Positions 4,436 through 44,900 are shown, counted from the stretch's first letter. The stretch: 46,430 nt of DNA from Candidatus Methanomethylophilaceae archaeon (GCA_944320495.1 CALUHR010000010.1:1-46430); one strand, 5' to 3'. Made by a program: numbers and translations. Notes: generated by a model not told the origin, from the sequence alone.

Positions 4436-4469
4436 GCCGACCCGTACCGACAGCCCGTAGTTAATGGAA

Positions 4470-5387
4470 TCGGAAATCGTCCAGCCTGAACGATTCCCTC
4501 CCGCGGGAGTCGACTATCCTATCGCGGGGCATCACCGCGCCCCAGAGGAGCTCAGAGTCGTCGCAGTAGAGCCTCGTCCTGCGCTCCGCCGGGGTGGAAC
4601 GGTTGGCGTAGCAGTAGGCGCAGTCGTGGCCGCAGGTGTCGTACTCGCCGATGTCGATGGCACGGACGCATAGGCATCCGTCCCTCACGGGCGCATCCAG
4701 CGTCTCGTACGGCACGTCGAGGGAGCGCATCATGGCCGCGTCGATGCACCCGCGTCTCTGTATCCCGTATGATGACAGGTCCCTCCTCGGACAGCAGCAG
4801 CTCAGGGTCATCTCGTTCTCGCGGGCGGTCTCGGAGGCCATCCTCAGGAACGCGTCAGCCTCCGCGGCCGTCGGACCGCGGTACAGGTCCCCGGCCTTCG
4901 AGGCCCTACCATACATGTCCACGAAGCTGAACACGCACCTGTCCGTCCAGCGGGACGCCTCGCGGCACATCATGCGGAACTTCCGCTCGTGGTACGCCGC
5001 ATCCATGCCCTTCCCGTAGAGCACCGGGTCGTACCTCCAGACCATCCTGTCCCTGCCTATCCTCTCGGCTATGCGGGCGCAGCAGTCGCTGATGTCGGCC
5101 TTGAAGGGCACACCCGGCTCTATCGCCCTGCCGTACGGCGTCAGCGTGACCTGGAAGACGTACATGTGGCCCATCGAACCGATCTCCCTCAGGTACGGCT
5201 CCATCGGGCGGGGATCCTTCGTCATGAAGACGATGCAGTCCACGTTGCGCCTGCTGAGGTCGACCCTGAGGAGCGACGTCCTCGAGACGGGGTTCCGTAC
5301 CAGGCAGGAGCCCTCCCTGAGACGGGCCATCATCCACCGTGGATGGAAGGCAGGGATGTCGGTGCGGCGGCTGGCACAGATGATCAT
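4470..5387 (-). CDS. DUF1848-family protein (C-terminal Fe-S motif, SPL-like)
   Basis: MIICASRRTDIPAF start, WRYDP, YDTCGHDCAYCYA. First in-frame CGA at 4470-4472 follows RLDDF; standard TAA at 4461. Confidence 0.88.
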
Positions 5388-5463
5388 CGGTACTCGGAGT
5401 TGATCATCGGTGATAACCCTGGCGACGGCAGGGTTATACGGGCGTCCTGCTACTCTGGCCCCG

Positions 5464-5937
5464 ATGAGGGGCCCCTGCATTCACTCGTTCATCACGCTGA
5501 TCGGAAGCATGAGCGTCACCGAGGACGGTGAGGGACGCGTAACGGCGCTGTACCTGCCGAACCAGAACCTCCCGGCGATGGAGGAGTGCGAGACGGAGGT
5601 CCTCTCCGAGGCCGCCGGGCAGGTCAACGAGTACCTCTCCGGCAGGAGAAGGTCCTTCGACCTGCCACTCCTTATCGATGGGAGCGAGTTCAGGCGCTCG
5701 GTCCTCGGGGCACTTGTCGACATACCCTACGGGGAAGTCAGGACCTACGGGCAGATCGCCGAGACAGTGGGATCGCCGAGGGCTTACCGCGCCGTCGGGA
5801 CCGCCTGCGCGGAGAACATGATCCCGATAATCATCCCCTGTCACCGCGTCGTCCCCAGCTCCGGGGGTGTGGGCAACTACGCCGGCGGATCGGCGCTCAA
5901 GACCAGACTGATAGAGCTCGAGAGGGAGAACGCGTGA
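5464..5937 (+). CDS. ogt: Methylated-DNA-protein-cysteine methyltransferase
   Basis: IPYGEVRTYGQIA, RAVGTAC and IIPCHRVV active-site motif. Confidence 0.92.
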   Translation: MRGPCIHSFITLIGSMSVTEDGEGRVTALYLPNQNLPAMEECETEVLSEAAGQVNEYLSGRRRSFDLPLLIDGSEFRRSVLGALVDIPYGEVRTYGQIAETVGSPRAYRAVGTACAENMIPIIIPCHRVVPSSGGVGNYAGGSALKTRLIELERENA

Positions 5938-6620
5938 CATCCTATGGCGAGGAGGTCCGCAGGCTCGCGGATCCCAAGCTGGCGGAGTTCAACTCCAAGC
6001 TGAACCCCGGGAAGGAGGGTGTGATCGGCGTCAGGATGCCCCAACTGAGAGCCCTGGCCAAGAGGATCGTCAAGGAGGACTGGAGAGGCTTTCTCGATGA
6101 GACCCCGGGATCCTTCGAGGAGGAGGTCCTGCGCGGCATCGTGATCGCCACGGCCCCCGTGGACACGGAGGAGAGGATCCGCCTCTCCGAGGATTTCCAG
6201 CACTACATCGACAACTGGGCGACCTGCGACTGCTTCTGCCAGTCGTGGAGATTCCCCGGGAGGGATTCAGACATGGTGTGGGACTACTTCGCGTCCAAGA
6301 TCGGAACCGGCGAGGAGTTCCCGATGCGCGTGTCCGTCGTGGCGAGGATGTCGCTCTTCAAGGACAGGGACAGGATGCTCCTGCTCGCCGAGGACATAGA
6401 GTCCCACGACCATCCCGGCTACTACTACAGGATGGGCGCCGCATGGGCGGCGTCCGTGATATACGTCAGATTCCCGGACATCGGCATGTCGATGCTCGAA
6501 TCCGGGAGGATGGAGACGTGGACCCACAACAAGACGATCCAGAAGATCTGCGAGTCCCTCCGGGTGACCGATGGGGACCGGTCCGAGGTGCGGGCCCTCA
6601 GGCGCCGCAGAGCTCCCTGA
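5934..6620 (+). CDS. DNA alkylation repair enzyme (AlkD-like)
   Basis: GTG start in a GTGA overlap with ogt. GVRMPQLRALAK, IDNWATCD, YYRMGAAW, HNKTIQKICES. Confidence 0.85.
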   Translation: MTSYGEEVRRLADPKLAEFNSKLNPGKEGVIGVRMPQLRALAKRIVKEDWRGFLDETPGSFEEEVLRGIVIATAPVDTEERIRLSEDFQHYIDNWATCDCFCQSWRFPGRDSDMVWDYFASKIGTGEEFPMRVSVVARMSLFKDRDRMLLLAEDIESHDHPGYYYRMGAAWAASVIYVRFPDIGMSMLESGRMETWTHNKTIQKICESLRVTDGDRSEVRALRRRRAP

Positions 6621-7173: not shown

Positions 7174-8262
7174 TCAGTTCACCTTCGGTCCGAGACGGTA
7201 GGCGATCGAGCAGTTGCCCTCGGCGGAGACCATGCACGGCCCCATGGGGTTCATCGGCTTGCAGACCTTCCCGAAGAGGGGGCACTGCTCCGACCTTATG
7301 AGCCCGCGCAGGACGTCTCCGCACCTGCATCCCTTGGCCTCCTCCTCGACCTCCGGGGTCTTGGCGAGGATGTCCTCGTGCACCTTGGTGGCGTCGTGGG
7401 CCTCGAACTCAGGCCTGAGGGCCAGGGCGCTCTTGGGGATCACCGGGAACCCGCGCCAGGAGCGGTCGACGGGTACGAAGGTCTCGTCCATGAGCTTCAG
7501 CGCCTTCGGGTTGCCCTCCGGGCGGACCAGACGGGTGTACTCGTTCTCGACCTCGGTCCTGCCCTCCTTGATCTGCTTGCAGAGCATGTAGCAGGACATG
7601 AGGATGTCCAGCGGCTCGAAGCCTGCGATGACCTGAGGGACGTGGTGCTTCTCGGACACGGGCTCGAACATGTGCGTGCCGGTGATGACGGCCACATGGC
7701 CGGGCATGATGAACCCGTCGATCCTGCTCTCGCCGAGCTGGAAGAGGGTCTCGATGATCGGAGGGCAGATCCTGTGGCAGCTGTAGACGCTGAAGTTCTC
7801 GGGGCAGTCGTCCCTGTGCAGGGGCACGCAGGTGGACGGGGCGGTTGTCTCGAAACCGACGCCGACGAACACCAGTGGCTTGTCGGGTTGGTCCCTCGCC
7901 ATCTTGACCGCGTCGTCTATCGAGTATACTATGCGCACGTCGGCGCCGTCGGCTTTGGCGGAGAAGAGGGATCCCGCGGTGGTGGGCACGCGCATCATGT
8001 CGCCGAAGGCGGTGACGGTGACGCCGTTCCTCGCCAGGGTTATGGCGTCGGCGATCTCGTGGCTGGTGGTGACGCACACGGGGCATCCGGGGCCCTGGGC
8101 GATGGTGACTCCGACATCGTTCAGCATCTCCTCGAGGCCGAAGCGGACGATGGTGTCCTGGTGCGTTCCGCATATGTGCATCAGGCGGACGTCGACGTCC
8201 AGCCTCCCGATCCCCTCCAGGATCTTCTTCGCGGTCTCCTCGTCCCTGTACTTGAACTCCAT
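7174..8262 (-). CDS. hypD: [NiFe]-hydrogenase maturation protein HypD
   Basis: MHICGTH, GPGCPVCVT, GFETTAP and CPLFGKVC...GPCMVSAEGNC motifs. Confidence 0.96.
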   Translation of the reverse strand: MEFKYRDEETAKKILEGIGRLDVDVRLMHICGTHQDTIVRFGLEEMLNDVGVTIAQGPGCPVCVTTSHEIADAITLARNGVTVTAFGDMMRVPTTAGSLFSAKADGADVRIVYSIDDAVKMARDQPDKPLVFVGVGFETTAPSTCVPLHRDDCPENFSVYSCHRICPPIIETLFQLGESRIDGFIMPGHVAVITGTHMFEPVSEKHHVPQVIAGFEPLDILMSCYMLCKQIKEGRTEVENEYTRLVRPEGNPKALKLMDETFVPVDRSWRGFPVIPKSALALRPEFEAHDATKVHEDILAKTPEVEEEAKGCRCGDVLRGLIRSEQCPLFGKVCKPMNPMGPCMVSAEGNCSIAYRLGPKVN

Positions 8263-8642
8263 CGCTCGACCTCCTCGATGTCCATGCACTTGACGGTGCA
8301 CTCCATGCCCTTCACGACCTCGATCTGACCACCGCACTCCGGGCATGCCAGCACCGGGACGGAATGGGTCTCGTAGTCCGGGTCCGTCAGCATCCTCGCA
8401 GGTCCGTTGTACCCGCAGGACGGGCAGCGGACCTCCACGGGGATGTGCTCTATCACGAGCTCGGAACCCTCGAGGATCGTGCCGGTGGTGACTATGCCGT
8501 AGGCGAACGTCATCTGCTCCTCGCCGAGGTTGGTGAGGTCGCCGATGCAGACGGTGACAGAATTCACCTTCTCGATGTTGTACTTGGACAGCTCGTCTAT
8601 CACGGCGTCCACGATGCCTGTCACGACCGACACTTCGTGCAT
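8262..8642 (-). CDS. hypA: Hydrogenase nickel incorporation protein HypA
   Basis: MHEVS start, CPSC and CPEC Zn motifs. Domain ends DIEEVE, then CGA (8262-8264) overlapping the hypD ATG. Standard stop at 8181. Confidence 0.93.
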
Positions 8643-8705
8643 GGGGTCGGTATCCTGGGACGTGACTTTAACCTTCACACTTCGGGGACCGATGGTAACC
8701 GCCGT

Positions 8706-9374
8706 TCACTTGCGGCCGAGGACCTCGGAGCCGTGATCGCACCATTGGGAGACTGGGCATCTCTCGCAGTGCGGGTGGTTCGGCAGGCAGACGACCTGGC
8801 CGTGCCTCACCAGGTACCTGTTGATGTCCGACCACCTCTCCCTAGGGGTGATGTCCATCAGGGCGAACTCGGTCTCCTCGGGGGTCCTGGTATGCACCAG
8901 ACCCATCAGGTTGGCGATGCGGTGGACGTGGGTGTCCACGCACACGGATGGTATGTTCATCGCATACGAGCGGACGCAGGCGGCGGTCTTGCGGCCGACC
9001 ATCGGGAGACTGACCAGCTCCTCGGTGCTCTCCGGGACCCTTCCCCCGAACTCGTCCCTGAGCTTGATGCAGCACCTGACGATGGCGTCGGCCTTCTGCT
9101 TCGGGAATCCTGCGGGGCGGATCAGCTCCGCCACCTCAGCAGGGTCCGCGCCCGCGATGGCGTCTATGGAATCGTATCTGTGGAACAGGTTGTCGGACGC
9201 CTTGCGCGTGTTGTCGTCCCTCGTGCGCTGCGACAGTATCGTGGCGATGAGGACGTGGAAGGGGTCCGCGGGCCACTCCGGGTTCAGACCCTCCGAGTTG
9301 CGGCCAGGATACGCTCCGCCCAGGTACTCCCCCGAGAGCGTGTCGAGAATCGGGACGATCTGTCCGCCATCCAT
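8706..9374 (-). CDS. nth: Endonuclease III (HhH-GPD, 4Fe-4S)
   Basis: LIATILSQRT, LPMVGRKTA, VDTHVHRI and CLPNHPHCERCPVSQWC motifs. Confidence 0.93.
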   Translation of the reverse strand: MDGGQIVPILDTLSGEYLGGAYPGRNSEGLNPEWPADPFHVLIATILSQRTRDDNTRKASDNLFHRYDSIDAIAGADPAEVAELIRPAGFPKQKADAIVRCCIKLRDEFGGRVPESTEELVSLPMVGRKTAACVRSYAMNIPSVCVDTHVHRIANLMGLVHTRTPEETEFALMDITPRERWSDINRYLVRHGQVVCLPNHPHCERCPVSQWCDHGSEVLGRK

Positions 9375-10609
9375 CTCAGGACCCCCTCCGCCATGCGGAA
9401 AGAACCGGTCACCAGGACGTTGTCGTCCCCTCTGCCGTCCAGCGCGGCCTCCATGGCCTCGCCTATGGTCCGGAACACGCCGTCCACCCTGCCATGCCTG
9501 CGCACGGTCTCTGCCAGATCCCCGCAGGGGAGCGCCCTGGGCGAATCGGGCTGGGTGACGTATATCGCGGAGCACATGGGGGCCAGCTCGGACACGACGC
9601 CATCGGCGTCCTTGTCGTTCAGCATGCCGATCACGAGCACGACGCTGCCGTAGATCTCCTCTATGTCGGAGCGAAGGCAGCGGGCACCGTCCACCGTGTG
9701 CGTCACATCGACGATCACCGGATCGGCCAAGAGCTTCTGCATCCTGCAGGGCCATGCCACCGTGGCAAGGCCGTCGGCCACATGAGGCGCGATGCGCCCC
9801 TCGTAATCCGAGAGCAGCCTGACACCCTCCATCGCCAGCGCGGCGTTCCTCGCCTGGAACCTGCCCGGCAGACCGACCTCGAAGAGTTCGCCGTTGTACT
9901 CCATCATCACCGACGCGGGACCGTTGGAGACGATGTCCACATCATCGGCTGCGATGCGCCTAATCGGGCATCCGACCTCGGCGGCATGCCTCTCGAGAAC
10001 GGAGAAAACCTCGTCGCCGTTCATCGTGACGCAGGGCACTCCGGGCTTCATGATGCCTGCCTTCTCCGACGCTATCTCACCGATGGTGCTGCCCAGGAAG
10101 GCGATGTGCTCCATGCCGATGTTGTTGATGACAGTGACCTCGGGGGATATGACGTTGGTCGAGTCCAGACGCCCGCCCATGCCCACCTCCATCACAGCCA
10201 TCTCCGCGCCCACCGTGCGGAAGAAGACGAGGGCGGCGGCGGTGAGGACCTCGAAGCTTGTGCACTCGACGCCCTCGCCCCTCATGGCCTCAGCGGCCTC
10301 CCTCACGACGCCCATGACCTGCTCCAGGTCCCTCTCGTCGATGTCGGAGCCGCAGAACCTGATGCATTCAGTGATGCTGAGGATCTCCGGAGACGTGAAG
10401 GCGCCTACGGCGAATCCGGACTCCCTAAGGATGGATTCGATCATGGCGCTCACAGAGCCCTTTCCGTCGGTCCCGGCCACATGGACGAACCTGATGCCGT
10501 CCTGAGGTCTGCCGAGGCGCTCCAGCAGTTCCTCCTCGGTCTCGAGGCCGAGCCTGATCCCCCTCTTCGACAATCCGCCGTACCAAAGCATGTTCGGCCC
10601 TAGAGACAT
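9350..10609 (-). CDS. folC: Folylpolyglutamate synthase/dihydrofolate synthase family (Mur-ligase fold)
   Basis: HVAGTDGKGS, EVGMGGRLDSTN, EKAGIMK, WPCRMQ, LVTGSF. First CGA at 9350-9352; standard stop at 9284. Confidence 0.88.
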
Positions 10610-10663
10610 GTTCCCTCCCGCGCCATTACGGCTTTACATAAATGCGTGACGCCATCAGGGGTC

Positions 10664-11530
10664 ATGCACGGGGTGTTCGTCTCCAGCGCGTACCTTCGCG
10701 GACGCAAGTTCGAGGAGCCCTGGGAGATGCTCAGGGACGCCTGCTCCAGGAGAGGCGTGGAACTGCGGAGGATGAGCAACTCCGAACTGGCGGTCCCCGT
10801 GGGGGATCCCGATCTGAAGAGGAGACTCGACGATCCAGATTTCGTGCTGTTCTGGGACAAGGACACCGTCTGCGCGGCGAACCTGGAGATGTGCGGGATG
10901 AGGGTGTTCAATCCCTCCGAGTGCATCCGCGTGTGCGACGACAAGGCCTTGACGCACCTGGCACTTGCTCGCAGGAGGATTCCGTCCATAGAGACTGTTG
11001 TGTGCCCCATGTCCTACGGTGAATGCGACGACCCCGACTTCGTATCGAGTGTGACTACGATCGTCGGATTCCCCATGGTCGCCAAAGACCGCTTCGGGTC
11101 CTTCGGCCAGCAGGTCCGGATGGTCTCGGATGAAAACGAATTGATGTGTCTGATATCCGGGCCGTACGTCCCCAGGATCCTGCAGCCGTACATCGAGTGC
11201 GGCGGCCACGACGTGAGGGTGGAGGTGGTCGGCGGGAGGCCGATAGCGGCCATGTCCAGGACCGCCCCTCCGGGAGACTTCAGATCCAACGCGTCCATCG
11301 GCGGGACCCTGGCCCGCCATGAGCCGGACAGCGAGGAATCCGAACTCGCCATCCGCGCCTGCGAGGCGGTGGGAGCGGATTTCGCCGGCGTGGACATAAT
11401 CCGCACTTCGAACGGGCCTGTGGTCTGTGAGGTGAACTCCAACGCCCACATCCGGAACCTTCTGGACTGCACCGGGATCAACGCGGCGGACGCCATCGTC
11501 GACCATGTTATATCGGAGGTGCGCGGACGA
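10664..11530 (+). CDS. RimK-family ATP-grasp ligase 1
   Basis: CDDKALTHLAL, FGSFGQQV, DFRSNASIGG, GVDI, EVNSNA. Domain ends HVISEVRG, then CGA at 11528-11530. Standard stop at 11680. Confidence 0.88.
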
Positions 11531-13082: not shown

Positions 13083-13229
13083 CGGAGGTTGGTATCGACC
13101 CCCCGCTTTTAAGCTGTATGGCCTGGTGTCCCGATGGGTGCATGCGGGCCTGCCTGGAAACGGGCGTGCGCGTTCAGCGCACACGAATCCGATGTAAAAT
13201 GTTAATACTCCGACCCCGATTGGCACGGC

Positions 13230-13670
13230 ATGGACGGAGTGACGCGCATCGGCGTCTCGTTGGAGCCGGAGCTGCTCAAACAGTTCGACGAATCGATCTC
13301 CAAGAAGGGCTATGTCAGCAGGTCGGAGGCGATCAGGGACCTGGTCCGCGACTCCCTGGCCGAGTCAGAGTGGAAGAACGACGACGAATGGATGGTAGGC
13401 ACCATCGTCATGGTCTACGACCACACCGTCACCTCCGTGGGCGACAAGCTCACCGACATCCAGCACGACCATCAGGGTATGGTCAACACCTCTGTCCATG
13501 TGCACCTGGACCACGACAAGTGCATGGAGATCCTCATCTGCGAGGGGAAGCTCAGAGACCTGAAGAGGTTCTCCGACGAGATAACCTCGATAAAGGGCGT
13601 CCTGCGCGGCAGGCTCACCATGGCCGCGCCCAGCACCGGCAACCTCCACCACGTCGGCCACAGGAACCGA
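13230..13670 (+). CDS. nikR: Nickel-responsive regulator NikR
   Basis: RIGVSL RHH strand, SRSEAIRDL, YDH and HVHLDHDKCME Ni ligands. 146 aa to CGA at 13668-13670; the standard stop at 13922 would give 230 aa. Confidence 0.93.
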
Positions 13671-14210
13671 TCCGTCCTCCAGGCCGTCCACTCCCACGAC
13701 GGCGGCGCTTATCCTGCCGTCGTCCATGCCGAACAGCGATCCCAGGAATCCCGCCGACTCCGGCGACGGGTAGAATATCCAAGGATCCACGCCGGCCGGA
13801 ACGTCCATGTCCAGCCTGGTGGCCCTCATGACCATGCTGGCATCATGTGCGCCAACCCGGTCCGGGAACACCACGAAGTTGTCCGAGAGCCAGAACAGGC
13901 CCTCGATCGCCCTGTAACGTGATTGCAGCGCTAGCGGCACATCGTGACCGATCACGACGCCGCGGTCGTCCACCAACTCCATGCTTATCTCCGATGGTCT
14001 GGAGAACGTCCCGTCGCAGAACAGGACGAACGCGTCCCCCTTGGATGCGCACGTCGCAATCCCCGGGTTCTCGATGCGGATTCCGCAGGAACCGCGAACG
14101 ACCGACGCCTCTATGTCCATCACCCTCTCCAGCACATCACGGGGGATCGGCTCGGCGCGTATGGTCCCGCCCAGCCGCGTCAGCCTGTCGGCGAACTCGC
14201 TCGGAATCAT
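13587..14210 (-). CDS. Hypothetical protein convergent with nikR
   Basis: Coding-like codon usage over about 180 aa. The 3' end is uncertain: first CGA at 13587-13589, standard stop at 13365. Confidence 0.6.
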
Positions 14211-16819: not shown

Positions 16820-17005
16820 TCGGAGAAGGAGCCCATCGGGTTCCTCGATGCCGTTGAAGTGATCGTTCATGGCATCGATCTCGCGAGAGATCCTTGCATT
16901 CCGGCAAGTGGAACATTCGAGCTCTTTGCCGAGGCCGAGCCTGAGACGCATCTCCGCGCGGTCGAGGACGACGATCCTCCCGCACTCGCAGTAGACGCTC
17001 ATCAT
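16820..17005 (-). CDS. Small Zn-binding hypothetical protein
   Basis: MMSVYCECG...LECSTCRNARI. First CGA at 16820-16822; standard TGA at 16808. Confidence 0.6.
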
Positions 17006-17382
17006 CGATGACTCTGCGATCGTATCCAGCGGTCTCAGATAACCGCGGCGCGGAAGATAGCTACCGCTGTACGAATCTTCTGTTGCCTTCAATCCTCTCC
17101 CCCGAGATTAAGCTGTTCTACGGACGCATACCATCCATCCGTCGGCATCCGTAGTCGCATTCATCCTCTAACCAGAGTCCGCATATAAGCCTTCCGAGAC
17201 GGTCCGACACGTCAAGGATTAACGCCGTGAAAAATGTCGATTCCGCAGTGGAAACATAGGTTTCCCGAAGAACAATCTTTAAATATGTAAGATACACGCC
17301 GTCAGCTGCCCCCAGAACGGGGAATTGGACGTTTTTTGATATTGGATACACCTCCCGGCGCACTGGCCGGGAGGCCGCCCCA

Positions 17383-18651
17383 TCAGAGGCGGAACTTGGA
17401 GATGCCGGGGAAGACGGCACGGGAGCCGAGGTCCTCCTCGATCCTCAGGAGCCTGTTGTACTTCGCCGTGCGCTCGCCGCGGGCGGGGGCCCCGGTCTTG
17501 ATCTCGCCGCTGCCCCATCCGACGGACAGGTCGGCGATGGTCGTGTCCTCGGACTCTCCGGACCTGTGGGAGACGACCACGTTGTAACCGTTGGCGAAGC
17601 TCATCGCCGCGGCCTCGCCGGCCTCGGTGACGGTCCCGATCTGGTTGACCTTCAGAAGGAGGGCGTTGGCCGCTCCTGCCTCGATTCCGCGGCTGAGGCG
17701 CTTGCTGTTGGTGACGAACAGGTCATCGCCGACGATCTGCACCTTGCTGCCGATCTTCCTGGTGAGCTCGGCGGTGGTCTCGAAGTCGTCCTCGAAGAAC
17801 GGGTCCTCGATGCTGATCAGAGGGTGGTCGTTGACGAGGGAGACGTAGTGGTCAGCGAGCTCCCCAGCGGAGAGGTCCATACCGTCCACGTTGTACACGC
17901 CGTCCTTGAAGAACTCGGAGGAGGCGGCGTCTATCGCCAGGAACACGTCCTTTCCGGGCGTGTAGCCGGCGTCGGACACGGCATCGGTGATGGTGGTGAG
18001 CGCCTCGTCCACGGTGTCCACCGGGGGCGCGAACCCGCCCTCGTCGCCGATGTTGATGGCGCCGACCCCGTACCTCTCCTTGAGGATGCCCTTGAGACTG
18101 GCATAGACCTCGGCGGACATGCGGAGGCAGTCGGAGAACGTCTTCGCTCCGGCAGGGATGATCATGCACTCCTGGACCCTCAGGTTGCCGCCGGCGTGCT
18201 TCCCGCCGTTGATGATGTTGAGCATTGGCACGGGGAGCGTGACGTGGTCCTTCCCGATGTGCTCGTAGATGGGCACGCCCTCGGCCATGGCCCCGGCCCT
18301 GACGGCCGCCAGGGAGACGGCCACCATGGCGTTTCCGCCGAGATTGGATTTGTTCTCTGTGCCGTCGAGCTCGATCATGACGCGGTCGATGGCCTCCTGG
18401 TCCGAGGGGTCCATGCCCTCGAGGGCCTTGGCGATGGGGCCGCGGACGTTCTCCACGGCCTTCATGACCCCTTTGCCCTTGTACCTGGACTTGTCGCCGT
18501 CCCTGAGCTCCAGGGCCTCCCAGGTGCCGGTGGACGCGCCGGACGGCGCGATGGCGGTGATCCTGTGTCCCTTGACGGTCAGCTCGGCCTCCACCGTGGG
18601 GTTGCCCCTGGAGTCGAGTACCTCCCTTGCCCAGACCTTCTCTATCTTCAT
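17383..18651 (-). CDS. eno: Enolase
   Basis: REVLDSRGNPTVE, APSGASTG, GDEGGF, LLKVNQIG and SHRSGES motifs. Confidence 0.98.
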   Translation of the reverse strand: MKIEKVWAREVLDSRGNPTVEAELTVKGHRITAIAPSGASTGTWEALELRDGDKSRYKGKGVMKAVENVRGPIAKALEGMDPSDQEAIDRVMIELDGTENKSNLGGNAMVAVSLAAVRAGAMAEGVPIYEHIGKDHVTLPVPMLNIINGGKHAGGNLRVQECMIIPAGAKTFSDCLRMSAEVYASLKGILKERYGVGAINIGDEGGFAPPVDTVDEALTTITDAVSDAGYTPGKDVFLAIDAASSEFFKDGVYNVDGMDLSAGELADHYVSLVNDHPLISIEDPFFEDDFETTAELTRKIGSKVQIVGDDLFVTNSKRLSRGIEAGAANALLLKVNQIGTVTEAGEAAAMSFANGYNVVVSHRSGESEDTTIADLSVGWGSGEIKTGAPARGERTAKYNRLLRIEEDLGSRAVFPGISKFRL

Positions 18652-19586
18652 CGTTGTTCCTCCTTGTATTCGATCATGCTGTGAAGGAAAATGTTGCGGT
18701 CCTTGTCGGTAAGCCCTCCGGCGTCAACCGAGACCCCGAAGGTGCACATCTTGGACCTGCCCGACATGAGCTGGTGGAGCATCAGCAGGGACTGGTTCAG
18801 CCCGTCCGCCTCCATCAGGTCCCCGAATGTGTCGAAGACGATGACGGGCCTGGCGTGCGAGTCTATGAACCCGCGTATGCTGGACATGAGCGTCCCGATC
18901 TCCTGGATGCCCAGGGATCCGCCCTTGCCGTTCCCGGAGAGGGAGAGCACCTCCATGTTGCTGTAGGTGAACCTCTCCTTGATGGCCTTCGCCCTGCCGG
19001 TCGTGACTATCATCACATCGTACCAGTCCGGGTCGAAGAGTCCCATGAACCTGTAGATGGCGTCCGGATACTCCTCGAATATGACGTAGGAGCTTCCGAA
19101 GGACACCCCGCGGCTGTCGGGCGAGTCCGAGGACGGCTGGATCCTCTCGCGCTTGTCGCGGCGGAAGAGACGACGCTTGCCGTCCTTCCTCTCCTTGCGC
19201 TTCTTTGTTCCGCGCTCCTCCGCGACCTCCAGGCTCTCGCCCTGGATGCGCTTCACCGCGTCCACCACATCGGACGACTTGAACGGCTTGTCGATGCTTA
19301 CGCGGATGAACGGGTTGTCCGTTGGGACTATGTCCCCGGATCCCTTGAGAAGGACGACGCGCATGGCCTGCGGGGTGATCGAAGGATCCATCTGCGCCAG
19401 GACATGGAGACCGTCCTCGCCACCGACCCTGGAGTCCAGGAAGAGGACCTCCGGGAGGAAGGCCGTCATCTTCTCGACCGCCTCGGAGACCGTGCTGGCG
19501 GTGCGGACCGTGTGGCCCTCCCCAGCCAGGATATCCCTTATGATCTCCCTGATGGCTGCGTTGTCGTCGACTATGAGGATCTTCAT
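18651..19586 (-). CDS. Response regulator: receiver domain plus DUF835-like C-terminal domain
   Basis: KILIVDD, phospho-Asp in LFLD, IDKPF, then an alpha/beta output domain. Ends CAA-CGA-TGA overlapping the eno ATG. Confidence 0.8.
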
Positions 19587-19696: not shown

Positions 19697-19727
19697 TAAG
19701 AAAAAACAGTCCGGCGCGAGCGCGGAA

Positions 19728-23739: not shown

Positions 23740-25134
23740 TTGCGCAGGAAGATAACCCGGAGGTTAGAGGAGTGGAAGACCTCAGGAGACAGGAAGAAAT
23801 GCCTGATGGTCCGTGGCGCGAGGCAGATCGGCAAGACGTACTCCGTCGAGGAGTTCGCGAAGGAGAACTACGGCCACTACCTCCGCATAGACCTGCATGA
23901 GGATGTGGGGGCCCGCACCATGTTCGACGGCGATCTCGATGCTGGCACAATCATGATGGCCATATCCGCCCGCTACCCCCGCTTCGAGTTCGTGCCCGGG
24001 GATACGCTGCTCTTCCTGGACGAGATCCAGGATTGCCCGAATGCCCGGACCGCACTGAAGTTCCTCTCCCGCAACGAGAACTTCGACATCGTGGCGTCCG
24101 GCTCCCTAATGGGCCTCAAGACGAAGGGCGTGGCCTCGATGCCCGTAGGTTCCGAGGAGAATGTCCAGATGTACCCGATGGACTTCGAGGAGTTCCTCTG
24201 GGCAATGGGCCTCTCGGAAGGCGTCGTGGAGCATGTCAGGGGATGCATCCGCAGGATGGAACCTCTGGAGGACTCCCTCCTGGACTCCATGTACCGCTAC
24301 ATGAGATGGTTCATGATGGTCGGCGGCATGCCAGAGGCCGTCCAGGAGTTCTCGGACACCAGGCTGTTCACCGGCGTCAGACGCATCCAGAAGGACCTGA
24401 TGGAGGGATACGGCGACGACATCGGCAGCTATGCCGAGGGCCGCTACAAGGACCGGGTGAGGAGATGCCTGGATTCCATATCCTCCCAGCTCGCCAGGGA
24501 CAACAAGACGTTCCTCTACTCGGACATGGAGGACAACCCGGACTATGCCGTCGGGAGCAAGTATTTCGAGTACGCCCTCAACTGGCTGAGCGGTGCTGAG
24601 CTCTCGCTCATCTGCGACCGCGTCACCCAACCGCGCCTGCCCCTGGAGGAGAACGCGATCAGACCCGCGTTCAAGCTCTACCTCCTGGATACGGGACTCC
24701 TGCTGTCGATGTACGACGACTCGATCCTTTACGACGTACTCAGCGGCGGCGTGGATGTCAACAAGGGCGCCCTGAGCGAGAACCTCGTCGCCTGCATGCT
24801 GCATTCGCAGGGCAGAAGGCTGTACTACTATCAGGTCTCCGAAAGGGGGAAGGAGAGGATGGAGCTGGATTTCGTGACGGTCATCGGTGGGAAGGTGACC
24901 GCCATAGAGGTGAAATCCGGGAAGAAGCGCGACACCAGGTCCCTGAACAAGGCGATGGAGAGATTCGGCATCGACGGGATCATGTTCGAGACCCGCAACA
25001 TCTTCGTTGACGACAAGGGAGTGAGACACTACCCGCTCTTCGCCGCCTCGTTCATGGATTGCATCGACGTGAGGCCCGAACTGCACGTGGACCTCCCGGA
25101 TGCGGATTCCATCAACGAGCGGTTCGGGAACCGA
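23740..25134 (+). CDS. AAA+ ATPase with DUF4143 C-terminal domain (AAA_14 type)
   Basis: TTG start. GARQIGKT Walker A, LDEIQ Walker B, ASGS, ENLVAC, ELDFV...IEVKSG. First CGA at 25132-25134; standard stop at 25365. Confidence 0.88.
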
Positions 25135-29019: not shown

Positions 29020-29448
29020 TCGCATCTCCACCCTGGTCCTCAGCCCCATTATCCCCACGGAGATGGACATCCTCGTCCCCTCCGCGAACTCGGCCTCCAG
29101 ACCGTCCGTGTAGATGCTGTGCCTCACGTCCACCCTGTGCTTCCCGGGAGACACCCTGACACGGTGTGTCCCGCCTGTCACCCTCAGAGATTCCTCTCCG
29201 TCGAACGAGACTGCGAACGGCTGGCCCTTGCCCGTTACGGTCACCAGCACAGAGACCATCCCGTCGTCATGCTCACAATCCGTCAGGCCCTCGCCCTCCA
29301 CCACGGGTTCCGAGACTCCGGGATCTGAGAGGTCGACATCATCCCTTCTCAGGACGAACCCGCAGTTGATGCAGTAGCACTGCATCCGATCGGTATTGAA
29401 GACCGTCCTCAGGGAGCAATTCGGACAAGTGAGCTCGACATAGGCCAT
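29020..29448 (-). CDS. Hypothetical protein with N-terminal Zn ribbon and C-terminal beta domain
   Basis: MAYVELTCPNC...CINCG. First CGA at 29020-29022 follows RTRVEM; standard stop at 28975. Confidence 0.65.
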
Positions 29449-29523
29449 GCCTGCTGCATAGGGATGCGAGCCTATAACCGTAACACCGAAAGGCATGCCG
29501 TTCCGTGCATCCATCTCCTTCCC

Positions 29524-29856
29524 ATGCGCAAGGTGAGAATCACCGTCCTGAGAACGATGCTGCTGGAAGATCTGGCGGCGGAGTACGGTCGCGAGGGACT
29601 CGGCAAATGCCCCTTCCTGAAGGAGGGACAGGTGTTCTACGCGGACTACGCCAAGCCGGAGGGCCTGTGCGACGAGGCGTGGAAGGCCATCTACCAGTAC
29701 GTGTTCGCCCTGGCCCACTTCGAGGGAGACGAGGTTTTCTACGGCGGGAGCTGGATTGACAAACCCGGAGTGGCAATATGCAGCTGCAACGACGGGTTGA
29801 GGCCGGTCATATTCAAGCTGGAGAGGACCGACGAGGAGGTCCCTCCAGACTCCTGA
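29524..29856 (+). CDS. TIGR04076-family protein
   Basis: MRKVRITVLR, CPFLKEGQVF, KPEGLCDEAWKAI and CSCNDGLRPVIFKLER motifs. Confidence 0.85.
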   Translation: MRKVRITVLRTMLLEDLAAEYGREGLGKCPFLKEGQVFYADYAKPEGLCDEAWKAIYQYVFALAHFEGDEVFYGGSWIDKPGVAICSCNDGLRPVIFKLERTDEEVPPDS

Positions 29857-32459: not shown

Positions 32460-32828
32460 TCGCAGGAGTGCCAGATACCTTCCGCCGATGGCTCCCGCCA
32501 CACAGAGGACGGAGTTCATCAGTATGTTCGCCCCGGCCTTCCCCCACGCCTCGTCGCAGAGGAGATTGACGGTGTCTATCGAGAAGGTGGACATCGTCGT
32601 GAACGCGCCGAAGAACCCGGTGAACACCATCGTCTTCACCGGCCCGTCGGCGTATATCCCGTAGCGGAACATGAGGAACGACGCGAGGCAGCATCCGACG
32701 ATGTTGACGATGAACGTCGCCCAGGGGAACCCCGTCTCCACGGTGCGGTAGACGCAGAACCTTGACAGGGCGCCGAGCGCCCCTCCGAGCGCGACCGCCC
32801 CGAACGTCACCGCAGTGCCGGGATCCAT
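32460..32828 (-). CDS. crcB: Fluoride channel FluC/CrcB
   Basis: GGALGALSRF, FPWATFIVNIVGC, TGFFGAFTTMSTF. First CGA at 32460-32462; standard TAA at 32439. Confidence 0.9.
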
Positions 32829-35814: not shown

Positions 35815-35823
35815 GAGCAAAAC

Positions 35824-35841: not shown

Positions 35842-35850
35842 TTTCCCTCT

Positions 35851-38091: not shown

Positions 38092-38092
38092 A

Positions 38093-39271
38093 TCGCTCCC
38101 TCCATGGTCCGACGATGCGAGGTCCGGTGTCCTCGTCGTCATCGTCGTCGATGATCACGTCCCCACTCTCGTAATCATCGTAGTCGTCGAAATCCGGGGC
38201 CGGGCCTATCATGGCACGCTCCTCCTCCTGAGGAGCGTCGTTCCAATCGTCGTCGACGATCAGCTCCCCGTCGTCGTAGTCATCGTAATCATCGAAATCG
38301 GGCACCGGCGGGAGCATGGCGCGCTCCTCCTCTTCCTGCGGTGCCTCCTGCGCCTCGAACTCGCCGTCGATGTAGACGTCGTCGTCCAGGCAGCGGAGCC
38401 TGTGCTCCCTGTACCCGCGCATCTCCAGGATAGTGGCACCGAGCTCGCGGGTCATCGCCCAGTACTGGTCCTCGGCGGTGAGCGCGCGGTATCCGGTGGC
38501 GCGCCATCCGCCGTTGAACGATTTGATCGCGACACCGCTGCCCGATGAACCGAGGCTGATGCCGATCCAGTCCTTGGTGGTGTTGGACAGCATGTACAGC
38601 ACGGAGCCCATCACGAACACGATGGCCCCCAGGATACCGAGCGGTATGCAAACCGACGACGGGTCGCCGTGGACCATCAGGTCTGTCGGGACCGAGAACG
38701 CCGCATCCGCGGCTATGTCCGCCTCCGCTCTCGCCTCGCCCAGCGCCAGCCCTTCGTAGTAGGCTTCCCCGTACTCGCCGGAGTTAGGCGACTGCTGGGG
38801 GTAGAAGTCATAGCCATATGGTATCGTATGTGAGACCTCGCCGTTCTGCACGGCCTCGAGGTACGTGGTGAAGTATCCGAACTCGACACCGTCGTTGAAT
38901 CCCTGCTTGTAGTCGCCGTCGGTGTCGAACTCCCCCGACTCGTACAGCGCCACGTAGGGCGCAAACATCAGCAGGAAACCGATCACTACGAACGCTATCG
39001 GCAGCCTGAGGTCCCTGCCGAACTTGGACATCATCGACGAGACCGACGATATAGAGGAGAGCGACGTCTCCTGCCTGTGGACGGCGGCGCCCTCCGCCGC
39101 CTCGATCTCGAATATGACACGCCTGTTGGTAACGGTGAGGACTCCCTCGGACTCGACGCTGCCGGGGAGCGGTATGACCGTCCCTAGAATGAGAGCGACA
39201 CGGTCCACTGCGGTGCAAGGGTATCTGCGGACGACGCGCTCGCCCTCGGCCATGACCGTCCGGTCTGTCAT
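38093..39271 (-). CDS. Membrane protein with PH-like N-terminus and acidic repeated tail
   Basis: EGERVVRRY...VTNRRVI, two TM segments, D/E-rich tail. First CGA at 38093-38095; standard stop at 38024. Confidence 0.7.
38146..38345 (-). repeat. Internal tandem duplication encoding two acidic ~33-aa units
   Basis: APQEEEERAMLPPVPDFDDYDDYDDGELIVDDD and APQEEERAMIGPAPDFDDYDDYESGDVIIDDD. Confidence 0.75.
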
Positions 39272-39897: not shown

Positions 39898-39947
39898 TGT
39901 CTCACCCCTGGCTCTGGACCCCGTACATCACCTTCGTATTAATGCGC

Positions 39948-41198
39948 TCGCGCGCGAACTATCGCGCCCGCGAGGGCATCGATCTCCACCTGGGTCTGCT
40001 CTCCGGTGGCCATGTTCCTCAGGGTCACGCAGCCCTCCTCGAGCTCCCTGGCGCCGACGATCACCGCGTACCTGGCGCGGGCCGAGGACGCGAACTTCAG
40101 CGCCTTGGCCATCTTCCTGTCCATGAAGTCGATGTCCGCGGACACGCCGGCCGTCCTCAGCGAGGCGGCGATTTCGGCGGCCTTCACGCGGACGTCGTCG
40201 GACACGCAGAGCACGTAGGCGTCGATGCCGTCGAAGTCGTAGGAGGAGCCCTCCTTCTCTAGTGCCAGCAGGGCCCTGTCGAAGCCGACGGCGAAGCCTG
40301 TGGAGAACACCTTCTCGCCACCGAAGAGTTCGGAGAGCGTGTAGGACCCTCCACCGCAGATCTGCTTCTCGGCTCCGAGCGCCGGGGCCTCCGCCTCGAA
40401 CACCATGCCGGTGTAGTAGTCGAGACCGCGAACGACGCCCAGATCGATCTCCAGGTCCCTGACGCCCATGGCGTCCAGGTAGGAGACGACCTGCCTGAGC
40501 CAGTCCCCGGCCTCTCCTGGAACCCTGTCCAGGACCTCGGTGCCGCCGACGGTCTCCGTGAGCTCGAACAGCGCCTCCATGTCCGCATCGGAGACGCCCA
40601 TGTCCGCCAGGATCGGCCTGGCCTCGTCGTACAGCTTCTTGTCCAGCTTCTGGAGGACCTCGGCGGTCCTCTCCTTGGGCACGCCGATGTCCGCGATCCT
40701 CTGCCTGAGGACGCCGATGTGGCCTATGCGAAGGCGGTAGTCCTTCAGACCCAGCGATTTCAGCATGGCGGACGCGGTGGCGATGGCCTCCGCATCGGTC
40801 TGCGGGGTGGCGCTGCCGATGATCTCCGCACCGAACTGGAAGAACTCTCTGTACCTGCCGCTCTGGGGGCGCTCGTACCTGAAGCACTGGCCGAAGTAGA
40901 ACACCTTGATCGGCTTCGGCTCGTTGCTCATGTTGTTGACGAACATCCTGATGACCGGCGCGGTCATCTCCGGGCGGAGGGCGATGGAGCGGTCGCCCTT
41001 GTCCTTGAACTCGTAGAGCTCCTTGAGGACGTTGGGGCCGGATCTGAGGATGAAAAGCTCCGAATCCTCGAAGATCGGGGTCTCGACCTCCCTGAACCCG
41101 AAGGTCCTGGCCGTCTCCCTGAGCTTTCCTTCGTAGAACCTGCGCCTCTCCATCTCATCGGGCAGGAAGTCCCTGGTCCCGCGCGGACACTGAATCAT
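39948..41198 (-). CDS. hisS: Histidine-tRNA ligase
   Basis: PRGTRDFLP, LRPEMTAP, FRYERPQSGRYREFFQ, VRGLDYYTG. First CGA at 39948-39950; standard TAA at 39939. Confidence 0.97.
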
Positions 41199-41280
41199 GT
41201 GGCTTTCGATACCGAGGACCCATATAACAACTGTCCTCGGCGGGCGATACGGCATATAGCCGCCACGCGATTACAGTGAC

Positions 41281-43155
41281 ATGGACGCCAGGACCGTGGC
41301 CGGGAAGTCCCTCTTCTTCATCCTCATATGCGCGTTCGTCACGGCGTTCTCCCGTGTGTTCGGCCCGGAGAACAACCTCGTCGGCGTCATCATCCTGGTC
41401 CTGGCGCTGACCATGCTGTCGCGGGACCTGTCTGTCCGGCCGGTGTGGAACCTCGGGGTGATGACGGCCTGCGTCCTGGCCATGGGACTGTTCTCCTTCG
41501 CATCGGTTTGGCTCGGGAATCCGCTGGTGGGCGCCGTGCTGAACTTCGCCTTCGTCTTCGGGGCCTGCTTCTACGCGATGCACGACCTGAACTCCCCGAT
41601 GCACTTCCCGTTCCTGCTAGGATACGCGTTCATGCTCTCGGTCCCGGTGGCCGCGGAGGACCTCCCGCTGAGGCTGCTGGCACTCATCGTTGGCGCGGTG
41701 TTCGTAGTCGGGCTGAACGTCCTATCCCATCACGTCTCCAAGGGCAGGAGGGAGCACGAGGGCATCGTGTCGATATGCGACGAGGTCTCCTCGATCTGCG
41801 TGTCCGCCAGGGCCGGTGCGTCCCCATCGACCGACAAGCTCGACGCGCTCTGCGCCAGGATGGACGGCTACCTCTACGAGAGGCTGAAGTCCAGGTTCCT
41901 TTCCAGACCGGGGGACCGCAGGATGCTGGACGTCATCGTCTCCCTTCAGGTGATCGGCTCCGCCGCCGCCCTCCGGGAGCGGGACCCGGAGACCCTCGAC
42001 TCGCTATCCGACATCATGGCGAGGATGTCCTCGTTCCAGAAGGGGGAGGACATGCAGCCCCTCCTCGACGCGATAGACTCCTTCCTCGTCGACTGTCCGG
42101 ACGCCGACCCCGAGGCGCGCTCCGCCCTCAGGCTCCTGAGGGACCAGCTGTGGAGGATGGCGTTCAGCACCTCCGAGGGGAGCTTCGACGAGGCCGACAT
42201 CCCCGCGTCCTTCAGGATCGGGACCGTCCTCAGGGAGAGCCTCCGCCTGGACTCGGCGAGGTTCACGTTCTCCTTCCGCATGGCGCTGGTGTTCTCGCTG
42301 TGCGCGTTCGTCTGGCAGGGCTGGGGCGACGAGAACGCCAAGGCGCTGGTGTTCACGACCATAGCCATGGTCCAGCCCTATCTCGAGGGGACCGCCAGGC
42401 GCACGGCCTTGCGCCTGGTCGGGACCGTCGCCGGGATAGCCGCGGCGATACTGTCGCTGGTGATCGCCGGAGGCGACCTGGCGGTGCTCACCGTCATCAT
42501 GCTGGTGGCTAACTACGTGTTCACGGTGATGTCCCCGCTCAGATACGACGTCATGATGGCCTTCGTCACCCTGTCGTCGCTCCTCACCGCGATGATGACC
42601 AACCCGCCGGAGACGATCCTCACCGAGAGGGTCGCCTTCGTGTTCGCCGGCGTGCTCATAGCCAGCGCCGCGAACCGTATCATCCTGCCCTACCGCCTGG
42701 CCGACGAGAACGTCGAGCTCTGCGGGAGGTATCTGGGCATCGTCAGGGACCTCATCGGGCGCCTCGGCGAGTCCCTGGACGGACGCCAGGACCGCCTGGC
42801 GGAGACCGCCCTCGTGCTCAGGGCCTCCACAGTGTCGTCCAAGATCAGGACCAATGTCACCGGAAACCCGGACCTCCCGACCAAGGTCCTCCTCTCCCGC
42901 CTCGACAGGCTGACCGTCGGCATCCGGCTGCTGTCCGGCTCGCTGACCACCGCCGGCTCGGAGTGCAGGGGGATCGTCGGAGGCATGGTGTCCTCATTCG
43001 ACCCGGATTCCCGCGACGGGGTGGAGGCTCCGGACACCTCAGGCCTCGAACCGAAGGAGGCCGACATGGTCCGCGAGACCGCCGGGATCCTGGACGGATA
43101 CCTCCGCGGCTCCGCCCTTTACGATACGATGTCATCCGGCGCCCGTCAGCTATAA
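41281..43155 (+). CDS. FUSC/aromatic-acid-exporter family membrane protein
   Basis: N-terminal TM bundle, helical linker, second TM block (FSFRMALV, VQPY, RLVGTVAG, ERVAFV). Confidence 0.8.
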   Translation: MDARTVAGKSLFFILICAFVTAFSRVFGPENNLVGVIILVLALTMLSRDLSVRPVWNLGVMTACVLAMGLFSFASVWLGNPLVGAVLNFAFVFGACFYAMHDLNSPMHFPFLLGYAFMLSVPVAAEDLPLRLLALIVGAVFVVGLNVLSHHVSKGRREHEGIVSICDEVSSICVSARAGASPSTDKLDALCARMDGYLYERLKSRFLSRPGDRRMLDVIVSLQVIGSAAALRERDPETLDSLSDIMARMSSFQKGEDMQPLLDAIDSFLVDCPDADPEARSALRLLRDQLWRMAFSTSEGSFDEADIPASFRIGTVLRESLRLDSARFTFSFRMALVFSLCAFVWQGWGDENAKALVFTTIAMVQPYLEGTARRTALRLVGTVAGIAAAILSLVIAGGDLAVLTVIMLVANYVFTVMSPLRYDVMMAFVTLSSLLTAMMTNPPETILTERVAFVFAGVLIASAANRIILPYRLADENVELCGRYLGIVRDLIGRLGESLDGRQDRLAETALVLRASTVSSKIRTNVTGNPDLPTKVLLSRLDRLTVGIRLLSGSLTTAGSECRGIVGGMVSSFDPDSRDGVEAPDTSGLEPKEADMVRETAGILDGYLRGSALYDTMSSGARQL

Positions 43156-43181
43156 CGCCACGGACGCCGATTCCGACCCTC

Positions 43182-44687
43182 ATGAGCACATTGTTCCTCG
43201 GCGGAGACATCATAACCATGACCGACAGGACGGCGGAGGCCGTCGTCGCCGAGGACGGCAGGATCGTCGCCGTCGGGAAGGCGGACGAGCTGAGAGCCAG
43301 ATACCCGGGTGCGGAGGTCCGCGATCTCGGCGGGAGGACCCTCATGCCCGGGTTCGTCGACGCCCACGGGCACTTCGCGGCATACGCCATGTCCCTGTTG
43401 CAACTCTCCCTTAGGGACGCACGCGACATGCGCACGCTCCTGGATTCCATATCGGAGAGACGCGCCTCCACACCCGAGGGCGGATGGGTGGATGCCCGCG
43501 ACTACGACCCCTCGAAGCTGTCGGAACACCGTGATCCCACACTCGAGGAGCTGGACTCCGCCTGCCCCGACCGGCCGCTGTGCCTGCATCACGTCTCCGG
43601 GCATCTGGGTCTGTTCAACTCCGTTGCCATGAGAACGCTCGGTCTTGACTCCTGCCGCCTCGAGGAGGGACCGTTCATCTCGGCCATCCAGGGCATACCG
43701 ATGGGGTCCCCCGAGGAGGTCCACCGCGCGTTCCTGGAGGCCCAGGAGCGCTTCGCCTCCTACGGCATCACCACCGCCCAGGAGGCGCTGATCAAGAGGG
43801 AGATGGTCCCCCTCGTCAGTCCTCTGATGGACTCCCCCGAGTTCTGGATCGACATCCTGGGCTTCGCCGACGCGGCGCACCGCGTCGAGGTCATGGACAT
43901 GCTCGGCATACCCGCCGGGGAGTGGCACGGTCATCTGAAGGTCAAGGGCGTCAAGGTCCTACTGGACGGTTCCCCCCAGGGAGGGACCGCATGGATGGCC
44001 GAGCCCTACCTGGACGGACACAACGGCTCCGCCACCACCGATCCGATCGATCTGCGCAGGTACCTGAGGGATGCTGCGGTGCTGGGGCTCGAGGTAGCCG
44101 TCCACTGCAACGGCGACGCCGCATGCAGGGAGCTTGTGGATGCCGTCGAGGAGGTCAGTCGCGACACCGGCCTGGAGCAGCACGTGGTGATGATACACGC
44201 CCAGTTCCTGACCTCGGACCTCATGGATCGCATGAAGGCCGTCGACATGGAGCCCTCCTTCTTCGTATCCCACTCGTGGTACTGGGGCGACCTCTATGTA
44301 GAGCTCTTCGGACGCGACCGCGCCGACCGCCTCAGCCCCTGCGGCACCGCCCTGTCCAAGGGTATGAGGATCACGATCCATCAGGACGAGCCGGTCCTGG
44401 AGCCGTGGCCGATGGACGCCGTCTTCTGCGCCGTGAACAGGAGGACCGAGGGAGGGGACGTCCGCGGCGAGGACGAGCGGATCGGCATAATGGACGCCCT
44501 GAGGGCTGTCACAGTCGACTCGGCTGGACAGAACCGCGAGGGAGGCATCGGGACCATCGAGGAAGGGGGCTGGGCCGACCTCGTAATCCTGGACAGGAAC
44601 CCACTCAGATGCGCCCCGTCAGAGCTCAGGGAGGTGACCGTCCTGGAGACGATCAAGCGCGGAAAGACCGTGTACATAAGGGACCGA
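43182..44687 (+). CDS. Amidohydrolase 3 (YtcJ-like) metal-dependent hydrolase
   Basis: LMPGFVDAHGH, KVLLDGSPQGGTAWM, HCNGDAA, IHAQ, HQDEP, ADLVILD, ETIKRGKTVY. First CGA at 44685-44687; standard stop at 44789. Confidence 0.9.
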
Positions 44688-44766
44688 TTACGGATCGAAC
44701 GAAGAGCTCGGTTGAACTCAATCAACCGCTCCATCGGCCAAAGCAGGGCATTGGAGGACGCGATTG

Positions 44767-44900
44767 TCGTCTCACCAGGGCATCGTTGACCGAGACCCTG
44801 CCGTACTCCATGTCCTCGATTGCCGAAACTGGCACCTCGGAGCGCTCCGTCAGCTGACCTGTGCTTAATCCCTCGGCTTGCGGACCTGCCTGTTTTTAAT
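44767..44900 (-). pseudogene. Possible frameshifted XRE-HTH remnant
   Basis: IKNRQVRKPR joined by a frameshift to GLSTGQLTERSEVPVSAIEDMEYGRVSVNDALVR gives an XRE-HTH-like pattern. No clean start. Confidence 0.3.

Follow-up and report, generated by a model that had tools for sequence, protein, structure and literature searches.

Gene ends at CGA in the window

The window analysed here is a 46,430-nucleotide stretch of DNA from Candidatus Methanomethylophilaceae archaeon (GCA_944320495.1, CALUHR010000010.1:1-46430), contig C10 of a 1.77 Mb archaeal assembly with 14 contigs and 61.6% GC (guanine plus cytosine), referred to below as G000. It holds a series of genes whose proteins end at an in-frame CGA, ordinarily an arginine codon. 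In the genus of this gut methanogen CGA interchanges with TGA and TAA among orthologues, even between genomes that are ~97% identical, and the sequence data indicate that the genus very probably uses CGA as a stop codon, a role not established in any free-living organism. A preliminary description of the window had listed 14 genes ending at CGA. We found an in-frame CGA on the expected strand at 14 of 14 coordinates, and 13 of the sites proved to be real gene ends, supported by protein-family ends and orthologous stops; the site at 13587 was instead an antisense shadow of nikR. The CGA followed the end of the Pfam domain by a few residues, and the sequence 3′ of each CGA resembled out-of-frame sequence.

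The relatives used for comparison are metagenome-assembled genomes from gut, rumen and faeces. A genome search placed at least 18 species in the same genus, with two complete genomes, and other families of the order Methanomassiliicoccales served as outgroups. Window C-termini were compared with five same-genus genomes (G002, G009, G010, G013 and G018), G018 being the closest relative of G000 (HisS identity ~97%). In these genomes TGA or TAA was found at the CGA positions of the hypA, nikR, rimK, crcB, DUF1848, small zinc-ribbon, receiver and acidic membrane genes. Where same-genus genomes shared the CGA, the upstream sequence was highly conserved and the tails downstream were unrelated; orthologues carrying the same tails, which the preliminary description had named as a refutation, were not what the five genomes displayed. 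At three window sites where G000 has CGA, G018 has TGA; at the others it has CGA.

A DUF1848 gene (4470..5387, minus strand) ends at CGA 4470-4472, with a 2-codon tail before TAA 4461-4463. Pfam DUF1848 covers residues 33-292 of this open reading frame (ORF), and the CGA position is TAA in G013 and CGA in G009, G010 and G018. In hypA (8262..8678, minus strand; CGA 8262-8264, 26-codon tail), the HypA profile, matched to position 111 of 112, ends at residue 133 and the CGA stands at 138, with TGA exactly there in G002, G010 and G013. A folC-like Mur ligase gene (9350..10609, minus strand; CGA 9350-9352, 21-codon tail) has the end of Mur_ligase_C at residue 404 and its CGA at 420; CGA is also found in G009, G013 and G018, and in G002 the gene ends at TGA within about 2 residues of the G000 CGA position. 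For the rimK-like ATP-grasp gene (10646..11530, plus strand; CGA 11528-11530, 49-codon tail), the RimK profile (187/188) stops at residue 287 and the CGA follows at 295, the same position at which G013 has TGA.

A tail of 83 codons with 4 further CGAs follows the CGA (13668-13670) of nikR (13230..13670, plus strand; 146 amino acids). NikR_C stops at residue 131 and the CGA is at 147, with TGA there in G002 and G013, and the tails in G009, G010 and G018 were mutually unrelated. Among NikR homologues in public data the modal length is 146 amino acids, which places the expected stop at codon 147, where the CGA lies. Annotation that reads through CGA under the standard code probably accounts for the public NikR entries of 161-362 amino acids from this clade, against the mode of 146. 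The 281-amino-acid ORF holding site 13587 (13365..14210, minus strand) was rejected as a gene, being the antisense shadow of nikR and its tail; it seems conserved in relatives because it mirrors nikR. It illustrates how often long shadow ORFs arise at 62% GC.

Further along the window, the final 60 residues of a small zinc-ribbon protein (16820..17092, minus strand; CGA 16820-16822, 3-codon tail) are 100% identical to those of its G018 counterpart; the CGA is matched exactly by TGA in G018, and TGA is present in G010 too. The gene for a response-regulator receiver protein with a Response_reg domain (18651..19586, minus strand) has CGA at 18651-18653 and TGA directly after it at 18648-18650; the CGA position is TGA in G009 and G010, and G018 has CGA and then TGA. 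An AAA_14/DUF4143 ATPase (23740..25134, plus strand) has CGA at 25132-25134 and a 76-codon tail with 3 further CGAs. Its domains stop at residue 394, G002 and G013 have TGA ends nearby, and G018 has another Arg codon at the site and CGA four codons downstream. The weakest of the 13 sites belongs to a zinc-ribbon protein (29020..29718, minus strand; CGA 29020-29022, 14-codon tail) that matches no Pfam family and has CGA at the same position in G018.

In crcB (32460..32828, minus strand; CGA 32460-32462, 6-codon tail), the CRCB profile (102/103) stops at residue 116 and the CGA is at 123, a position occupied by TGA in G002, G009 and G018, TAA in G013 and CGA in G010. An acidic membrane protein (38093..39271, minus strand; CGA 38093-38095, 22-codon tail) ends at TGA at the same position in G018 and one codon later in G013. 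For hisS (39948..41255, minus strand), CGA 39948-39950 is followed by a 2-codon tail and TAA; HGTP_anticodon stops at residue 432, the CGA is at 436, relatives have TGA within 1-5 residues, and G018 has CGA. Finally, an amidohydrolase gene (43182..44687, plus strand; CGA 44685-44687) carries a 33-codon tail with one further CGA, and its Amidohydro_3 profile (472/472) stops at residue 571, ahead of the CGA at 575; the CGA of G018 lies 2 codons earlier. No CGA was found inside a protein body in the window, in agreement with the preliminary description, and the remaining in-frame CGAs were 5′ over-extensions upstream of Pfam domains. Both tRNA genes of the window, tRNA-Pro(CGG) at 1116-1189 and tRNA-Gly(GCC) at 45176-45249 (both minus strand), looked ordinary.

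CGA across the genome and among relatives

Genes were called with a simple ORF and codon-usage model, which gave 1380 genes, 1048 of them well scored. Counted by relative position in the ORF, in-frame CGA was depleted centrally: the distribution was U-shaped, with shares per decile of.365,.157,.063,.036,.008,.007,.016,.03,.064 and.253, compared with about.05-.09 each for other rare codons in the central deciles. Within the central half of genes the count of CGA was 113 in frame 0, compared with 4349 in frame 1 and 16080 in frame 2. Given this out-of-frame abundance, the triplet as such is not avoided, and the effect depends on the reading frame and is therefore translational, as had been argued from the window. 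Restriction-site avoidance was ruled out by the same abundance. The in-frame CGAs in gene centres, ~0.27/1000 codons, were mostly artefacts of over-extended ORFs.

At the ends of the 1048 well-scored genes, CGA came before the standard stop in 171 (16%), and the others ended at TGA (828), TAA (36) or TAG (13). Past the first CGA on the 3′ side, codon log-odds fell from +0.47 to -0.44 per codon and GC at third codon positions from 0.87 to 0.62. Coding potential continued past seven control codons with no comparable drop. A Pfam scan of the 20 best-scoring mid-ORF CGAs placed all 20 between the domains of adjacent in-frame genes or just past the last domain. For example, the Pelota ORF has its domain to residue 431, CGA at 432 and an HMGL-like gene next, and a NifH-like protein has CGA at about residue 301, with a NifD-like gene beyond it. 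In the SNO/Sel1 ORF the SNO domain runs to residue 398 and the CGA is at 402, and an MtmB domain stops at 217 with CGA at 220.

To compare gene ends directly, 332 C-termini were aligned to the last residue with those of G008, a complete sister genome of the same genus with 53.5% GC. Opposite the stops of G008, G000 has TGA in 228 cases, CGA in 38, TAA in 3 and TAG in 3. Every other codon occurs at most 8 times, including the one-step neighbours of TGA (GGA 4, AGA 1, TGC 1, TGG 0). As expected of a codon that has passed from sense to stop, CGA aligned with the stops of orthologues, as the preliminary description had predicted, and with protein-family ends, and it was absent from conserved internal positions with only two conserved exceptions.

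The relatives differed in how far this change extends. In an outgroup genome with 41.5% GC, CGA was spread evenly along genes at 1.08/1000 codons. In G008 central CGA occurred at 0.01/1000 codons and CGA ended 10 of 1012 genes (1%). Because central CGA is near zero in G008 as well, the purge of CGA is genus-wide, and because CGA gene ends make up 16% at 61.6% GC against 1% at 53.5%, the spread of CGA to gene ends accompanies the higher GC of the G000 lineage. This fits the GC pressure from TGA to CGA that had been proposed for the window. Unassigned codons are known elsewhere, namely CGG in Mycoplasma capricolum and AGA in Micrococcus luteus, and the sister genome G008 comes close to that state for CGA. 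For G000 such a status fails, since CGA ends its 171 genes at orthologous stop positions and a cognate tRNA exists. Among other Methanomethylophilaceae, hisS sequences at ≥70% identity, a set that takes in records titled Methanogranum, Methanoplasma and Methanarcanum, had in-frame CGA only 3 times in some 12,000 codons; that of G016, at least, was C-terminal, and more distant relatives had 0-9 in-frame CGAs each. From this small hisS sample, the purge of CGA may reach beyond the genus.

Gene ends at CGA also showed signs of a leaky stop, in closer backup stops and in avoidance by strongly codon-biased genes. The next in-frame standard stop lay a median of 13 codons after CGA (25% within 3) and 28.5 codons after TGA (12% within 3; Mann-Whitney p = 3e-9), a comparison that carries some bias in that the gene scoring may favour short tails. 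The share of genes ending at CGA was 24.8% in the quartile of weakest codon bias and 5.7% in that of strongest bias. At terminal CGAs position -1 was C in 56% and position +4 was T in 56% with no strict motif, and overlapping ATG starts account for some of the +4/+5 bias.

The cognate tRNA, the release factor and the internal CGAs

The loss of the cognate tRNA, which the preliminary description had expected and which is a usual mark of a sense-to-stop change, did not occur. ARAGORN identified a tRNA-Arg(UCG) gene at G000:C13:413317-413390 with Arg-type features (a GGATA D-loop, C35 and G36), and searches of 19 genomes of the genus, counting G000, found the gene in every one. Its apparent absence from G008, G015 and G007, based on blastn with the G000 tRNA, was overturned by whole-genome ARAGORN on G008 and a search with the G008 tRNA, which brought to light the second of two tRNA-Arg(UCG) types. 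In an alignment of 18 sequences, compensatory changes affected 10 of 21 pairs, and pairing was 100% in both the acceptor stem and the T stem, which argues that the gene is maintained by selection. The 31-39 pair was broken in 13 of 17 distinct sequences, including that of G000, leaving a 4-bp anticodon stem, and the tRNAs of G008, G007, G005 and G015 had C33 in place of the universal U33 and a 27-43 mismatch. The outgroup tRNA-Arg(UCG) was canonical, with five Watson-Crick anticodon-stem pairs and U33. From these features we infer that the tRNA of the genus is a weakened yet functional decoder.

We also asked which CGAs truly lie within proteins. A whole-genome test against G008 for high-scoring segment pairs (HSPs) spanning a CGA at first gave 59 'internal' CGAs, most of which were rejected as HSPs crossing subject stop codons or as shadow frames of conserved genes. 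The survivors were aRF1, the archaeal release factor, and rpL18e, both with CGA at a conserved Arg in the two genomes, one accessory flavodoxin-like gene and one antisense ORF. The prediction that CGA would never align with a conserved Arg was thus contradicted by aRF1 and rpL18e. In rpL18e (G000:C13:191557-191913, minus strand), surveyed in 28 genomes of the whole order, codon 30 was CGA in 27 of 28, within an invariant ATC TGG CGA GA motif, and neighbouring synonymous sites were variable. This CGA reflects a constraint, probably at the RNA level, that is older than the genus and the CGA purge, and it may force the genus to retain tRNA-Arg(UCG). In the flavodoxin-like gene (G000:C8:55331-55840, plus strand), the single internal CGA at residue 119 lies within a conserved GKxxxPFCTxEGSG motif at which the outgroup has Val. 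The gene is patchy in the genus, and the choice lies between a pseudogene and a site of readthrough.

The genome has one aRF1 gene plus Pelota, and the identity of aRF1 (G000:C2:85936-87165, minus strand) was confirmed against solved structures. Seventeen genus copies and 12 outgroups were surveyed. All 17 genus copies contained exactly one in-frame CGA within the protein, and in 16 of them, G000 among these with its single internal CGA at residue 78, it encoded the Arg of SIA(A/S)-R-LKT, matching human R81. The exception, G005, has Lys at this site and its single CGA at another early Arg. The residue-78 codon was always flanked as NCT-CGA-CTN, though NCT is a disfavoured codon type here, and the resulting T at -1 and C at +4 are unlike the preference at terminal CGAs. 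At the same position the 12 outgroups all had CGC, CGT, CGG, AGA or AGG. That a codon purged elsewhere was gained and kept in aRF1 is the strongest indirect sign of a functional link between aRF1 and CGA. Like prfB, the ORF of the factor appears to contain a single, early in-frame copy of its own target codon, and this arrangement suggests autoregulation of the RF2 type.

Inspection of aRF1 for changes in the decoding motifs, advised by the preliminary description, found NIKS and YxCxxxF both intact. Genus-specific substitutions were in flanking positions only: A replaces S immediately ahead of SNIKS, and M replaces R at the residue matching human R68. At the archaeal counterpart of the eukaryotic GTS decoding motif, which reads GTE in the other genus members and in the outgroups, the aRF1 of G000 and G018 has STE. 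By residue count on the translation, checked by the human eRF1 offset, the YxC of aRF1 is Y122-R123-C124; we take R123 to be the equivalent of L123 in the yeast numbering. Because R123 is common to outgroups that read CGA normally, it would at most predispose aRF1 to CGA reading. In yeast, eRF1/eRF3 competes with tRNA at CGA and releases the peptide, detectably even where one CGA stands in the stop position, and L123R enhances the reaction (Wada and Ito 2018, PMC7379694).

Readings of CGA and relation to known codes

Considering these data together, we think it likely that throughout the genus CGA is mainly a leaky termination signal beside TGA and TAA, produced by aRF1 release working against a weakened tRNA-Arg(UCG). 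Comparison of sequences lends strong support to CGA in the role of a functional, leaky terminator. The mechanism and the autoregulation loop are inferences and would run as follows. aRF1 would release the peptide at CGA, which differs from UGA in the first base alone, and would outcompete its cognate tRNA-Arg(UCG) because this is kept in weakened form; the tRNA would be retained for the two conserved internal CGAs of rpL18e and aRF1. When plentiful, aRF1 would cut short its own synthesis at codon 78; when it is scarce, the codon would be read through as Arg. In GC-rich lineages, T-to-C changes would turn TGA stops into CGA stops nearly neutrally. We hold only tentatively, with slightly more doubt than belief, the full combination in which CGA is a fourth stop codon genus-wide, its dual meaning is held by the weakened tRNA, aRF1 controls itself through its conserved CGA, and all this lies atop a code that reads TAG as pyrrolysine.

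Several of the observations weigh against termination by aRF1 as the general fate of CGA. The cognate tRNA is maintained, aRF1 has no change in NIKS or YxCxxxF to explain C at the first position, its R123 is shared with outgroups of normal CGA reading, and the internal CGA of the flavodoxin-like gene is unexplained. The maintained tRNA and the CGA of the essential rpL18e show that CGA remains readable as Arg and that termination cannot be complete; with internal CGAs at conserved Arg positions in both aRF1 and rpL18e, CGA looks dual or leaky rather than cleanly reassigned. Moreover, gene calls came from a simple ORF model in which long junk tails lower the ORF score, and this may bias the tail-length comparison.

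Other explanations were weighed against the same data. The protein would still end at CGA if a weak tRNA led to a stall at a hungry codon that was resolved by rescue factors (aPelota, ABCE1, peptidyl-tRNA hydrolase), and the aberrant anticodon arm, the unchanged aRF1 decoding motifs, the presence of Pelota and the avoidance of CGA in strongly codon-biased genes all agree with such termination. However, rescue is a slow and costly way to end 16% of genes and leaves unexplained the single CGA that aRF1 gained and kept genus-wide, and we consider this route unlikely. With a standard code, C-to-U editing of the mRNA could convert in-frame CGA to UGA, the commonest stop, by one base change, and the weak context bias at terminal CGAs might be seen as its trace. 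An editing enzyme would nevertheless be blind to the reading frame, and the ~20,000 out-of-frame CGAs in gene centres, the lack of a strict motif and the contribution of ATG overlaps to the +4/+5 bias make editing very unlikely; it would also destroy aRF1 and L18e unless their sites were spared.

It is extremely unlikely that CGA is ordinary Arg everywhere, with the tails translated as tolerated losses of stop codons. The cognate tRNA does exist and two internal CGAs do align with Arg, but one protein in six would then carry a random extension of up to >80 residues, and neither the purge, nor the alignment with stops of CGA only (38 against the handful for GGA, AGA, TGC and TGG), nor the TGA/CGA flips between 97%-identical genomes would be explained. 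For an assembly or base-calling artefact in which T is read as C, the probability is negligible: we found no point in its favour, the effect is frame-specific, and the same CGA sites in independent assemblies of other projects and in complete genomes exclude it. Frameshifting at CGA, after the human mitochondrial -1 model, was rejected, as the flanks yield no stop in either shifted frame.

Sense-to-stop reassignments are known from organelles, namely AGA/AGG in vertebrate mitochondria, UCA in Scenedesmus mitochondria and UUA in Thraustochytrium mitochondria. As there, an amino-acid codon (here too an Arg codon) has been lost from gene bodies and marks gene ends. The present case differs in that the genome, of ~1.8 Mb, belongs to a free-living cell and has hundreds of genes affected, the cognate tRNA is kept and two conserved sense sites persist. 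In bacterial prfB, a programmed in-frame UGA serves RF2 autoregulation and is rescued by a +1 frameshift. The aRF1 gene resembles prfB in being a release-factor gene with one early copy of its own target codon conserved across species, but here the rescue would be plain readthrough by tRNA-Arg(UCG). To our knowledge there is no case of prfB-type autoregulation of an archaeal release factor. The yeast eRF1/eRF3 reaction (PMC7379694) involves the same codon and a proposed competition between a poor tRNA-Arg and a class-1 release factor; in yeast it is a weak side reaction in a reporter, whereas here it would be an apparently fixed, genome-wide way of ending genes. Condylostoma and Parduczia, the UGA of Blastocrithidia (with a tRNA-Trp of 4-bp anticodon stem) and archaeal UAG as pyrrolysine likewise give one codon two outcomes by competition of tRNA and release factor, and an altered anticodon stem is part of such ambiguous-code systems, as in the tRNA-Arg(UCG) of this genus. 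In those codes stop codons gained sense, whereas here a sense codon gains stop.

If true, a codon would here have passed from sense to stop, the direction thought hardest, for the first time in a cellular genome, and the aRF1 circuit would be the first archaeal release-factor autoregulation. The two ends of a gradient, about 1% versus 16% CGA gene ends, would coexist in one genus, and the sharing of one codon by a release factor and a tRNA would become testable. Under standard-code annotation, roughly one in six proteins of these genomes would acquire a junk tail at the C-terminus or be fused to its neighbour. The clade also supplies widely used PylRS/tRNA-Pyl tools, so peculiarities of its decoding matter for genetic-code engineering.

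We found no published description of a CGA stop in Methanomassiliicoccales in the literature. A 2026 preprint by Melnykov described two archaeal assemblies from hydrothermal vents with CGG as Trp and no CGA in HMM (hidden Markov model) domains, and raised a CGA stop as a possibility, untested there, leaving its meaning open (bioRxiv 10.64898/2026.04.02.715157). The vent archaea have about 50% GC, a tRNA-UCG that was not found and a reassigned CGG, whereas here CGG is still Arg, tRNA-UCG is present and the alignment of CGA with stops is shown directly. The clade of G000 is already reported to read TAG as pyrrolysine, termed 'Code 34', in a preprint that does not mention CGA (bioRxiv 10.1101/2024.09.30.615893). 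TAG ends just 13 of the 1048 good genes of G000, which fits that code. The ORF at C3:56760-57908 matched only positions 234-450 of 450 of the MtmB profile, the C-terminal half, as expected of a gene with an in-frame TAG, and a pylT homologue lies at C9:68685-68755 with 87.5% identity to the tRNA-Pyl of G008.

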